Below, piece by piece: positions 923-15,140 of a DNA stretch of 64,000 bases. The first letter of the stretch is position 1. Each line of letters begins with the position of its first letter. The notes beneath the pieces are model-generated. The model did no database searches. It was not told where the DNA came from and worked only from the letters and a program-made list of their open reading frames with translations. Source of the stretch: a virus; the UHGV virus genome UHGV-0018629. One strand, written 5' to 3'. A program made the translations under genes and the position numbers.

Positions 923-1504
923 CTAACCGAGCTTTTTAGTTAATTCATTCCAATGTTTTCTGCACAAAGAAACATAAATTTCATCACCAATACAAATTTG
1001 ATCGCCTTCTTTAACTGGGGTTCCATCTTCCATTAATCGAGCGGTCATAATAGCTTTTTTACCACAGTGACAAACCGCTTTAAGCTCAATAAGTTTATCA
1101 GCAATCGCTAAAAGTTCTTTAGAACCTTCAAATAATTTTCCAGCGAAATCAGTTCTTAATCCATAAGCCATAACAGGAACATTATATGTATCAACAATTC
1201 GGCTTAATTGGTGTACTTGTTCAGTTTTTAAAAACTGAGCTTCATCTACAAATACGCAATGAATATCTTTTTGTGCTTCAGCCCATTTATAGAACTCGAA
1301 AATATCCATATCATCTGTAATAATATTCGCTTCCTGTTTAATTCCAATGCGAGAAACAACTTCACAGACAGAATCGCGAGTATCAATAGCAGGTTTAAGA
1401 ACTAATACACCCATTCCACGTTCTTTATAATTATGCGCAGCAGTCAAAAGAGAAGCAGATTTTCCAGCATTCATTGCTGCATAAGTAAAAATTAAACTCG
1501 CCAT
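923..1504 (-). CDS. tk: Thymidine kinase
   Basis: 193 aa, P-loop MNAGKSASLL, C-terminal Cys cluster typical of type II TK; matches T4 Tk length. Confidence 0.9.
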   Translation of the reverse strand: MASLIFTYAAMNAGKSASLLTAAHNYKERGMGVLVLKPAIDTRDSVCEVVSRIGIKQEANIITDDMDIFEFYKWAEAQKDIHCVFVDEAQFLKTEQVHQLSRIVDTYNVPVMAYGLRTDFAGKLFEGSKELLAIADKLIELKAVCHCGKKAIMTARLMEDGTPVKEGDQICIGDEIYVSLCRKHWNELTKKLG

Positions 1505-1513
1505 ATCACCTTC

Positions 1514-1720
1514 TTAAAGCGTATTCACATAAGCTATTAATTCATTTTCTTTCTTATCAAACCGATCAGCAAATTCTTCCTGCTGTTCGGGAGATAGCGG
1601 GCCGTATTCATCATAAAAGGTGTTTGCTTCTGTATGCTCATCTAGAAGTTCATGGATAAGCTCAAACAATTTATCTTTTTGTTCTTTACTCAGACTCATA
1701 ACCATGTAACCTTTAAGCAA
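1514..1720 (-). CDS. Hypothetical small acidic protein
   Basis: 68 aa ORF, tight spacing in tk operon. Confidence 0.45.
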   Translation of the reverse strand: MLKGYMVMSLSKEQKDKLFELIHELLDEHTEANTFYDEYGPLSPEQQEEFADRFDKKENELIAYVNTL

Positions 1721-1908
1721 TATTCTTCTACATGCTGTTTACGACCTTTCTTATCAATAAAGGTATATTCAACGAATGTTCCAATGTAGTCTTTATCTAC
1801 ATCATGCGGGCTATTAATTGGGCATTTAGTACGGCAAATGCGTTCCCATTGACGAATAATTTCTGCTTTATTTTTAGGGTCAAACGGATGCGGGTAATGT
1901 ACTTTCAT
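1696..1908 (-). CDS. Hypothetical protein with Cys/His pairs (possible zinc binding)
   Basis: 70 aa ORF; overlaps neighbours, start uncertain. Confidence 0.4.
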   Translation of the reverse strand: MKVHYPHPFDPKNKAEIIRQWERICRTKCPINSPHDVDKDYIGTFVEYTFIDKKGRKQHVEEYCLKVTWL

Positions 1909-2359
1909 AATCCACCACTATTAAATCAATATCAGGAGTAAACATGTCGATTAATTTAGAAACCTTATCCCAATCACCGCCAGCAATACCACAACCTATA
2001 CGTGGAATATAAATTACTGGTTTAAACAAAAGGGTTTCTGCCTGTAGATTTAATTCTATCATACAGTTTACTAAAGCACCATAATCAAGATTAGGGCCTG
2101 GTTCATATTGCGTATACAGGTTGTAACATATGCCAAAACCATTAGGTTTATGTTTAAAAACTATAGACATATCACCGAGTTTTTCACGCGAACCATATTC
2201 AGTTGTGGTCTTATCTATTTCTAAAATTTTAGGATAGGCCCTTGCTAATTGACCAGCTACACCACTGCCCATCGTATGAAAACAATTGCAGCCATGGGCT
2301 ATAATATTACCTTCAAGAAAGAGGGCGACAATATCGCCCTTGATATATTTTACAATCAT
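1880..2359 (-). CDS. Macro-domain protein (ADP-ribose binding/processing fold)
   Basis: 159 aa; N-terminal GDIV...HGCNC...GSGVAGQL and later GCGIAGG motifs characteristic of macro domains. Confidence 0.6.
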   Translation of the reverse strand: MIVKYIKGDIVALFLEGNIIAHGCNCFHTMGSGVAGQLARAYPKILEIDKTTTEYGSREKLGDMSIVFKHKPNGFGICYNLYTQYEPGPNLDYGALVNCMIELNLQAETLLFKPVIYIPRIGCGIAGGDWDKVSKLIDMFTPDIDLIVVDYESTLPASV

Positions 2360-2703
2360 CTAGTACTCAATCCTCGATTATAAGAATCTACTAAACGGTC
2401 AACCATTGAATGACAAGCGGCTTTGTCTTTTTCCTCCGCAACTGAGCATTCTAAGGTATTCCACTTTTTAGCATATCGTTTTAATAATGTATCGTTTTTG
2501 TATCTACTTGTCTTATCTCTTTCTCCGTCTTTATATGCATATATTAATTTCTGCGCAAACTCAGATTGACATGCTTTATTTTTCCCACAATAATCTGCCG
2601 CAGTGCGGTTCACATACTCCCTAATTTCAGTATATGATGTATCTGCTGACGCATAAGCAGAAAATGAAATTAATCCTATACATAAAACCAAAATTTTAGT
2701 CAT
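2356..2703 (-). CDS. vs: Secreted small protein (Vs position and length: 115 aa)
   Basis: 115 aa with cleavable-looking signal peptide MTKILVLCIGLISFSAYASA; position between macro-domain gene and regB as T4 vs. Confidence 0.45.
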   Translation of the reverse strand: MTKILVLCIGLISFSAYASADTSYTEIREYVNRTAADYCGKNKACQSEFAQKLIYAYKDGERDKTSRYKNDTLLKRYAKKWNTLECSVAEEKDKAACHSMVDRLVDSYNRGLSTR

Positions 2704-13611: not shown

Positions 13612-13688
13612 TGGCCAGGGTGAAAGGATTCTAACCTTTAACCTGCGGTTTAGAGGACCGCTACTCTATACAATTGAGTTACACCCCG
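13612..13688 (-). tRNA. tRNA-Arg (anticodon UCU), CCA encoded
   Basis: Hand-folded cloverleaf: acceptor cggggtg/caccctg, anticodon arm gcggt-cctctaa-accgc; atypical D- and T-loops. Confidence 0.55.
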
Positions 13689-13813
13689 TAATTAGTTCAC
13701 AGCAATACCTACTCCAACAATCAAGATGTCTTCACACGAAATTAAGAGAAGAGTGATCAGTTCAACCCTATAATCGCGTCAAGTAGATATTAATGTGACA
13801 GTTGTCACAAATT
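13689..13813 (-). ncRNA. Candidate small stable RNA between tRNA-Arg and tRNA-Asn
   Basis: 125-nt non-coding spacer in a co-transcribed tRNA cluster; contains hairpin tgtgac/gtcaca; analogous to T4 species 1/2 RNAs by position only. Confidence 0.25.
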
Positions 13814-13888
13814 TGGCGGACGTGATAGGATTCGAACCTATAACCAATCGCTTAACAGGCGATCGCTCTGCCATTGAGCTACACATCC
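13814..13888 (-). tRNA. tRNA-Asn (anticodon GUU), CCA encoded
   Basis: Cloverleaf: acceptor ggatgtg/cacgtcc, anticodon loop ctgttaa, T-loop ttcgaat. Confidence 0.75.
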
Positions 13889-13892
13889 AAAT

Positions 13893-13979
13893 TGGTGGGG
13901 AGTGATGGAGTCGAACCACCCGAGTCGCAATGACAATGGATTTACAGTCCACACCGCTACCTCTACGGGATAACTCCCC
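13893..13979 (-). tRNA. tRNA-Tyr (anticodon GUA), type II with long variable arm, CCA encoded
   Basis: Acceptor ggggagt/actcccc, anticodon loop ctgtaaa. Confidence 0.75.
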
Positions 13980-13992
13980 TTAATTCTTAATT

Positions 13993-14067
13993 TGGTGGCC
14001 CTGGGTGGAATTGAACCACCATCTGGCGATTATGAGTCGCTTGCTTGAACCTTCCAGCTACAGGGCC
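13993..14067 (-). tRNA. tRNA with CAU anticodon (Met, or Ile if lysidine-modified as in T4)
   Basis: Acceptor ggccctg/cagggcc, anticodon loop ctcataa. Confidence 0.75.
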
Positions 14068-14068
14068 T

Positions 14069-14144
14069 TGGTGCTGATTGACGGAATCGAACCGCCGACC
14101 TTCTCATTACAAGTGAGTTGCTCTACCTACTGAGCTAAATCAGC
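14069..14144 (-). tRNA. tRNA-Thr (anticodon UGU)
   Basis: Acceptor gctgatt/aatcagc, anticodon loop cttgtaa, T-loop ttcgatt. Confidence 0.75.
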
Positions 14145-14149
14145 AAAAC

Positions 14150-14239
14150 TGGCGGAGGCGATAGGATTTGAACCTATGAGTCACCGGAGCGACTGCCGGT
14201 TTTCAAGACCGGTGCATTAAACCACTCTGCCACGCCTCC
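14150..14239 (-). tRNA. tRNA-Ser (anticodon UGA), type II
   Basis: Acceptor ggaggcg/cgcctcc, anticodon arm ccggt-cttgaaa-accgg, long variable arm. Confidence 0.75.
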
Positions 14240-14245
14240 AAATAT

Positions 14246-14896
14246 TTATATATTGTTAATTTGATTTAGAATTCTTTTTGCTTGAGTATGACTTACGCCA
14301 ATATGCTTAGCATATTTAGATAATTCGCCACGCTTAGAAAAATCATATAATTTAGAAATTTCTATTCTTCTTTTTCTTTCATCCGCAGAAACTTTTGCTT
14401 CGTTTGCTTTTGCTATTTTACGTTTAGCTTCTTGAGAATGAGTTTTACCAGCAAAGCCATTCTTCATTAATCCATTTGAAGACCATCCTTTTAATTTTCC
14501 GTTAGAATGTGCCTTTTTAACACCCAATGAAATTAATTCACGTTGCTGATCTGTCATAGGATAATTATTTATATGATCCCATCCACCTTCACCTCCAAGT
14601 TTTAAATTATACACATCTGGTCTATTTAAAAACTCTTCTGTGACAATATTTTTCTCGGCTTCAAGCATAGATTCTTTATCATCAAAATACTCTAATATTT
14701 CTTTAGAAAAATTTTCTATACCATATTTATCTTGGGCTCTTTTTAATAATTTACCAGAACCCATATATCCATCATCTAAATTTTCGGTAGAATGCACACC
14801 AATATAAATTTTATTATTAATTTTATTTGTTATTTTATAAAGATAAAAATGCATATCAGTCCCTAATAAAGAACTGAGCGTCTCACGACGAGTCAT
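14246..14896 (-). CDS. segB: GIY-YIG homing endonuclease (SegB-like) inside the tRNA cluster
   Basis: 216 aa; N-terminal GIY-YIG motif YLYKITNKINNKIYIGVHST, basic C-terminal DNA-binding region; lies between tRNA-Gly and tRNA-Ser. Confidence 0.75.
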   Translation of the reverse strand: MTRRETLSSLLGTDMHFYLYKITNKINNKIYIGVHSTENLDDGYMGSGKLLKRAQDKYGIENFSKEILEYFDDKESMLEAEKNIVTEEFLNRPDVYNLKLGGEGGWDHINNYPMTDQQRELISLGVKKAHSNGKLKGWSSNGLMKNGFAGKTHSQEAKRKIAKANEAKVSADERKRRIEISKLYDFSKRGELSKYAKHIGVSHTQAKRILNQINNI

Positions 14897-14900
14897 AAAT

Positions 14901-14974
<74 letters not shown>

Positions 14975-14979
14975 AAATT

Positions 14980-15066
14980 TGGTGCGAGAAGTGGGACTCG
15001 AACCCACAAGGAAATCATTCCGCAGCATTTTAAGTGCTGTGCCTTTACCAATTTGACCATTCTCGC
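14980..15066 (-). tRNA. tRNA-Leu (anticodon UAA), type II
   Basis: Acceptor gcgagaa/ttctcgc, anticodon arm cagca-cttaaaa-tgctg. Confidence 0.75.
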
Positions 15067-15067
15067 G

Positions 15068-15140
15068 CTGGGAATAAAGGACTCGAACCTTTGCATCCTG
15101 GAATCAAAATCCAGTGCCTTACCAACTTGGCTAATTCCCA
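15068..15140 (-). tRNA. tRNA-Gln (anticodon UUG), no encoded CCA, abuts tRNA-Leu
   Basis: Acceptor tgggaat/attccca, anticodon arm ctgga-ttttgat-tccag; one nt separates it from tRNA-Leu. Confidence 0.7.

Follow-up and report, generated by a model that had tools for sequence, protein, structure and literature searches.

An ALC1-like macrodomain encoded by a divergent tk.4 allele of a T4-like phage as a probable eraser of DarT2 marks on DNA

The window analysed here, a stretch of 64,000 nucleotides from the virus genome UHGV-0018629, encodes on its minus strand a protein of exactly 159 amino acids that is an ALC1-like macrodomain, the class of TARG1, DarG, SCO6735/BT1257 and Poa1p, and the ortholog of T4 Tk.4 (AdfM). 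It is probable (about 0.75) that this protein is a stand-alone DNA ADP-ribosylglycohydrolase, which erases the marks that DarT2 leaves on thymidine in single-stranded phage DNA. The macrodomain would be produced during infection. The DarT2 toxin of the DarTG2 system would attach ADP-ribose to thymidines of the single-stranded phage DNA and block replication, and the Tk.4 enzyme would cleave the ADP-ribose from the DNA so that replication proceeds. Catalysis would rely on a glutamine-type site formed by Asn25 and Gln84, as in SCO6735. Since the protein has no DarT-binding domain, its target would be the modified DNA and not the toxin. The open reading frame (ORF), the macro fold, its class, the orthology and synteny with T4 and the active-site residues come from this analysis, whereas the anti-DarTG2 phenotype and the chemistry of SCO6735 are taken from the literature. 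Both the macro domain and the anti-DarTG2 role have been published, and this is a known family with a function already proposed. Our additions are the invariant glutamine at the position of the DarG and TARG1 lysine, the separate lineage of the PhiKZ protein, and a divergent allele in a T4-like backbone of about 96% identity.

The sequence-only reading of this DNA had assigned glycine-rich signatures of a macro domain to the 159-residue ORF. These signatures are legible as the two loops HGCNCFHTMGSGVAGQ and PRIGCGIAGGDW, and the match to the Pfam Macro family (PF01661; E=2.4e-8, 34.4 bits against a gathering cutoff of 22 bits) covers 116 of the 118 profile positions, from 2 to 117. This match is well beyond chance. 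The protein also matches PHROG 335, annotated as 'phosphatase', with E=2.2e-71. Homologues numbered 802, and 74 of them were aligned as the family alignment, in which H22, G23, N25, C26, G33, A35, G62, N80, Y82, Q84, P119, G122, G124 and W130 are invariant. The coding sequence and its main features are located as follows.

1880..2359, minus strand: Tk.4/AdfM macrodomain coding sequence with an ATG start, stop codon counted (ORF list, Pfam Macro, PHROG 335, identity to T4 Tk.4 and Bas45, AlphaFold2 model).
2249..2296, minus strand: first ADP-ribose-binding loop HGCNCFHTMGSGVAGQ, residues 22-37, with the invariant H22, G23, N25, C26, G33 and A35.
1970..2005, minus strand: second glycine-rich (phosphate-binding) loop PRIGCGIAGGDW, residues 119-130, with the invariant P119, G122, G124 and W130.
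2285..2287, minus strand: codon of Asn25 (AAT), the conserved catalytic-site asparagine, read from the sequence and invariant in the family.
2108..2110, minus strand: codon of Gln84 (CAA), aligned to TARG1 Lys84, DarG Lys80 and SCO6735 Gln85 and invariant in 74 of 74 sequences.

The AlphaFold2 model computed on the 74-sequence alignment is an alpha/beta macro fold with a predicted local distance difference test score (pLDDT) of 93.9 and a predicted template-modelling score (pTM) of 0.89. Its closest structural neighbours were BT1257 (score 18.2), the Mycobacterium tuberculosis DarG macrodomain (17.4), Poa1p (17.1), T. africanus DarTG (16.8) and TARG1 (16.6). All five are ALC1-like macrodomains, and the fall to 13.7 for the next match, a coronavirus macrodomain, sets other macrodomains apart. 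Foldseek returned the same set, with human TARG1/OARD1 (PDB 4J5S) as the best match (E=6.8e-10, TM 0.72-0.82). A profile search against the PDB sequences retrieved BT1257 (2e-19), TARG1 (1e-17), SCO6735 (5e-15), Poa1p (2e-14) and DarG (7e-12). DarG was also the sole PADLOC match (E=3.5e-7) and the best NCBIfam match (E=1.2e-6), for the window protein as well as for T4 Tk.4, and 71 of the 74 family members matched DarG in PADLOC. Sequence profiles, the predicted model and the fold searches all confirm the macro domain.

The first loop, HGCNCFHTMGSGVAGQ, aligns with the loop that bears N22 in DarG, N23 in PhiKZ AdfM and N27 in SCO6735. The asparagine equivalent to N25 is needed for activity both in PhiKZ AdfM (N23A; PMC13309987) and in SCO6735 (N27S; PMC9411070). 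Q84 was placed by aligning the family to TARG1, BT1257 and DarG with HMMER and MAFFT. In the HMMER alignment, TARG1 Lys84 stands opposite Q84 and TARG1 Asp125 opposite A126, and MAFFT placed the lysine of the DarG FPTK motif opposite Q84. The hhalign alignment to PhiKZ gp104, where the catalytic position is two residues off register in a low-confidence stretch, was not used. As Q84 stands opposite the lysine of both DarG and TARG1, the Tk.4 family lacks their catalytic lysine. A glutamine occupies the catalytic position in BT1257 and SCO6735, too (NMIGQHG), and N25 and Q84 align with N27 and Q85 of SCO6735 by way of the BT1257-SCO6735 alignment. In SCO6735, hydrolysis of thymidine-linked ADP-ribose on DNA depends on Gln85 and on Asn27, which locks Gln85; the enzyme rescued Escherichia coli from DarT and had no activity on guanosine-linked ADP-ribose (PMC9411070). 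The T4-type AdfM proteins carry a glutamine-type active site as in SCO6735, not the lysine of DarG.

SCO6735 from Streptomyces coelicolor and BT1257 from Bacteroides (PDB 5E3B and 2FG1) represent the glutamine-type branch of the ALC1-like class, with which the window protein shares the glutamine and the asparagine, although those two proteins are cellular and the window protein is phage-encoded. The SCO6735 subclass has a longer mobile loop bearing Lys89 and Lys94, which extends about five residues beyond that of DarG and TARG1. The window protein does not have it: the Tk.4 profile has a 6-residue gap opposite 'kdskgl' of BT1257. We thus rejected full membership in the SCO6735 subclass. With N25 and Q84 present and the long mobile loop absent, the protein is best described as a glutamine-type ALC1-like macrodomain with a short loop. 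TARG1 likewise has a short mobile loop, similar in length to that of the window protein, but neither residue of its catalytic dyad Lys84/Asp125 is kept, the window protein having Gln84 and Ala126 instead.

DarG, the antitoxin of DarTG2 (PDB 5M3I and 5M31), has its catalytic Lys80 (FPTK) where the window protein has Gln84, and a C-terminal DarT-binding domain that is absent from the 159-residue protein. The DarG models (NCBIfam NF048014 and PADLOC PDLC02990) matched with 28.1 bits, against an equivalog cutoff of 250 bits, and only over their N-terminal macro part, positions 2-142 of 338 or 2-145 of about 330. Moreover, the gene of DarG pairs with darT, whereas tk.4 in the window is flanked by vs and a tk.3-like ORF, with no adjoining darT. 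An orphan DarG was rejected, as Lys80 and the C-terminal domain are missing and the score is below the threshold. Another phage protein bearing the name AdfM, PhiKZ gp104, is also a stand-alone macrodomain directed against DarTG2 with the same conserved asparagine, and it strips DarT2-added ADP-ribose in vitro (PMC13309987). However, PhiKZ gp104 has the lysine motif FPTK of DarG and matches the M. tuberculosis DarG with E=9e-25. Between PhiKZ gp104 and the window protein the match is marginal: BLASTP aligned only 31 residues with E=0.001, and hhalign gave a probability of 96%. The T4-type and PhiKZ-type AdfM proteins are separate recruitments of ALC1-like macrodomains under one name.

The window protein and T4 Tk.4 (NP_049723) align over 155 residues with no gaps, 58% identity and 74% positives (E=5e-70). 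They occupy the same slot from vs to tk.3, upstream of tk and on the same strand, which is common to the window, T4, JoYop and Bas45. They also share H22, N25, Q84, G122, G124, W130 and the PHROG 335 assignment. The two proteins differ in the phosphate loop, which reads IGCGIAGGDW, the family consensus, in the window protein and IGAGIGKGNW, an atypical form, in T4 Tk.4. The C-terminus of the window protein is also four residues longer, and the 3' end of its gene overlaps the next ORF by 29 nucleotides.

The macro domain in this family is not new: an A1pp (macro) domain was matched in tk.4 orthologs in 2006 (PMC1524935), and the T4 RefSeq entry carries the note 'contains A1pp phosphatase motif'. 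As for the function, T4 lacking adfA and adfN remained resistant to DarTG2, from which the authors predicted a further factor (PMC11825919). Under DarTG2, the HIDEN-SEQ transposon screen singled out one significant gene, tk.4, and its clean knockout made T4 sensitive to DarTG2; the gene was renamed adfM, for anti-DarT factor macrodomain, and the authors proposed that ADP-ribose is enzymatically removed from DNA (bioRxiv 10.1101/2025.11.20.689424). That tk.4 counters DarTG2 accounts for the residual resistance of T4 without adfA and adfN. The earlier suggestion that the macro domain could reverse ADP-ribosylation imposed by host immunity fits these genetics of the T4 ortholog. Its wider form, in which such modifications are reversed or sensed, holds as far as reversal of host-imposed ADP-ribosylation is concerned. 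It did not specify a substrate; the evidence favours thymidine-linked ADP-ribose on DNA over protein or ADP-ribose-derived signals. With the domain annotated since at least 2006 and the anti-DarTG2 role reported in 2025, the discovery value of our analysis is small. The glutamine-type site of T4 AdfM, its lineage apart from PhiKZ AdfM and the divergent alleles across T4-like phages are of use for annotation, and the same three points could help in designing the missing Tk.4 biochemistry.

Several observations weigh against a DNA ADP-ribosylglycohydrolase directed at DarT2 marks. No Tk.4 protein has a reported biochemical activity, including in the preprint that describes the T4 tk.4 phenotype, and that phenotype was recorded in minimal medium at 30 °C (bioRxiv 10.1101/2025.11.20.689424). 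Identity between the window protein and the T4 protein that was tested is only 58%, and their phosphate-binding loops differ; we infer that the window allele shares the activity of T4 Tk.4. In addition, the Tk.4 family is missing both the catalytic lysine of DarG and the long lysine-bearing mobile loop used by SCO6735 for DNA (PMC9411070). Two further points concern the substrate. The sequence scores of Poa1p, an ADP-ribose-1''-phosphate phosphatase, exceed those of DarG, and SCO6735 and TARG1 also cleave ADP-ribose linked to Glu/Asp of proteins (PMC9411070), which makes a second substrate possible.

These last two points correspond to rival explanations. The 'phosphatase' and A1pp annotations imply a Poa1p-like ADP-ribose-1''-phosphate phosphatase, clearing the small-molecule by-product of RNA 2'-phosphate removal. 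The similarity to Poa1p is real. Deposited Poa1p structures carry mutations at His23, Ser30 and Phe152; of these, His23 stands opposite His22, which is invariant in the Tk.4 family. However, Ser30 stands opposite the poorly conserved Thr29, the label goes back to an earlier domain name (smart A1pp, PMC1524935) and not to an assay, and such a phosphatase would leave the specific DarTG2 phenotype of T4 tk.4 unexplained. We find this explanation quite unlikely.

A second rival is that the enzyme clears ADP-ribose from proteins or RNA, be it the marks of host effectors, the modifications made by the phage enzymes Alt, ModA and ModB, or ADP-ribosylated mRNA. It draws on the Glu/Asp-directed activity of the close structural relatives TARG1 and SCO6735 (PMC9411070) and on the many substrates that macrodomains generally take (PMC9503650). 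Yet the sole phenotype reported for tk.4 was found under DarTG2, a DNA modifier. The T4 transferases modify arginine, and cleavage of arginine-linked ADP-ribose is not known for ALC1-like macrodomains. CmdTAC, a system with an mRNA ADP-ribosyltransferase, strongly blocks wild-type T4 despite the presence of tk.4 (PMC11618068). As the main function, this activity appears unlikely to us; as a side activity it is possible. A sponge or hydrolase for ADP-ribose-derived immune signals, of the Thoeris type or similar, is very improbable: the similarity to ThsA is far below that to ALC1-like hydrolases, N25 and Q84, residues of the hydrolase type, do not vary within the family, and no genetic link has been reported.

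Apart from its activity, the window allele of tk.4 stands out by its divergence. The window belongs to a Tequatrovirus, and many genomes of this T4-like group match the region with 96-98% identity. In the comparison with T4 DNA, the sequences flanking tk.4 are about 96% identical, whereas 1910..2254, which makes up the 3' two-thirds of the gene, is only 50-64% identical; the first 100 nucleotides or so of the gene are 81-97% identical to T4. The tk.1/tk.2 area contains a second patch divergent from T4, at 1513..1652. This mosaic at 1910..2254 and 1513..1652 is a pattern typical of allele replacement, and the divergence of tk.4 looks like allele exchange by recombination. An 8-bp-stem hairpin, AGGGCGATATTGTCGCCCT, was observed at 2322..2340 (minus strand), 19-39 nucleotides past the tk.4 start codon. 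It is the same in T4 and JoYop and falls inside the approximately 100 nucleotides of tk.4 that are kept while the rest diverges; it could be a chance feature, an RNA element or the edge of a recombined segment.

Homologues were present in 2769 of 50,697 phage records, many of them named 'phosphatase' or 'hypothetical protein'. Identity to the window protein was at least 90% in 319 records, 80-90% in one, 60-80% in 122, and below 60% in 2327, the last group including the T4-type alleles at about 58%. A 'hypothetical protein' of phage PaulHMueller/Bas45 is 100% identical to the window protein, and JS98 has a copy of 93% identity. The window is not Bas45 itself, as the small ORFs separating tk.4 from tk number five in Bas45 and two in the window; T4 has three (tk.1 to tk.3) and JoYop four.

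The identity of 58% within a backbone of about 96%, the differences in the phosphate loop and the 93%-identical copy in JS98 make altered specificity a candidate property of this allele. Its substrate range or partner specificity could be unlike that of T4 AdfM, and tk.4 could be a diversifying arms-race locus and not a housekeeping eraser, a proposal that we consider unlikely. The allele might act against other DarT2 variants or on further types of ADP-ribose linkage in nucleic acids, inhibit DarT directly, as has been reported for SCO6735, or evade a host system able to sense AdfM.

The minus-strand gene order around tk.4 is regB, vs.1, vs, the tk.4-type ORF, a tk.3-like ORF, a tk.1-like ORF, tk, rI.1 and rI, which places the macrodomain ORF on the strand of tk and three ORFs upstream of it. 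T4 has this order, and from regB to tk it also agrees with JoYop and Bas45. The start codon of tk.4 is joined to the preceding gene.

2356..2359, minus strand: ATGA overlap of the vs stop with the tk.4 start (ORF coordinates and sequence; T4 is arranged likewise).

This overlap suggests that tk.4 may be translationally coupled to vs. The description of the gene as part of a tk operon is plausible in that the cluster is tightly packed and on one strand, but the promoter and terminator scans define no transcription unit. The promoter scan gave 15 promoter-like sites versus 16.5 +/- 4.4 in shuffled sequence and thus no excess, and the terminator-like hits within tk.4 amounted to a single short coding-region hairpin. 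Plus-strand ORFs beneath tk.4, such as 2249..2383 (44 amino acids), are short and unsupported and were treated as chance.

The upstream neighbour vs, the valyl-tRNA synthetase modifier gene, spans 2356..2703 (minus strand); in T4, it was the gene most depleted in minimal medium versus LB (HIDEN-SEQ preprint, bioRxiv 10.1101/2025.11.20.689424). On the other side, tk lies at 923..1504 and the interval from tk to tk.4 at 1514..1908, and a segment of about 373 bp of JoYop is absent from the window. The ends of the window carry genes 51, 27, 28, 29 and 48 and do not reach alt, adfN or adfA. The tRNA set of the window is unlike that of T4, as Pro was undetected and Asn and Tyr are present. Its nine tRNA genes lie at 13612..15140 (minus strand) and comprise Arg(TCT), Asn, Tyr, Met/Ile(CAT), Thr and Ser, followed after a gap of about 660 bp by Gly, Leu and Gln.
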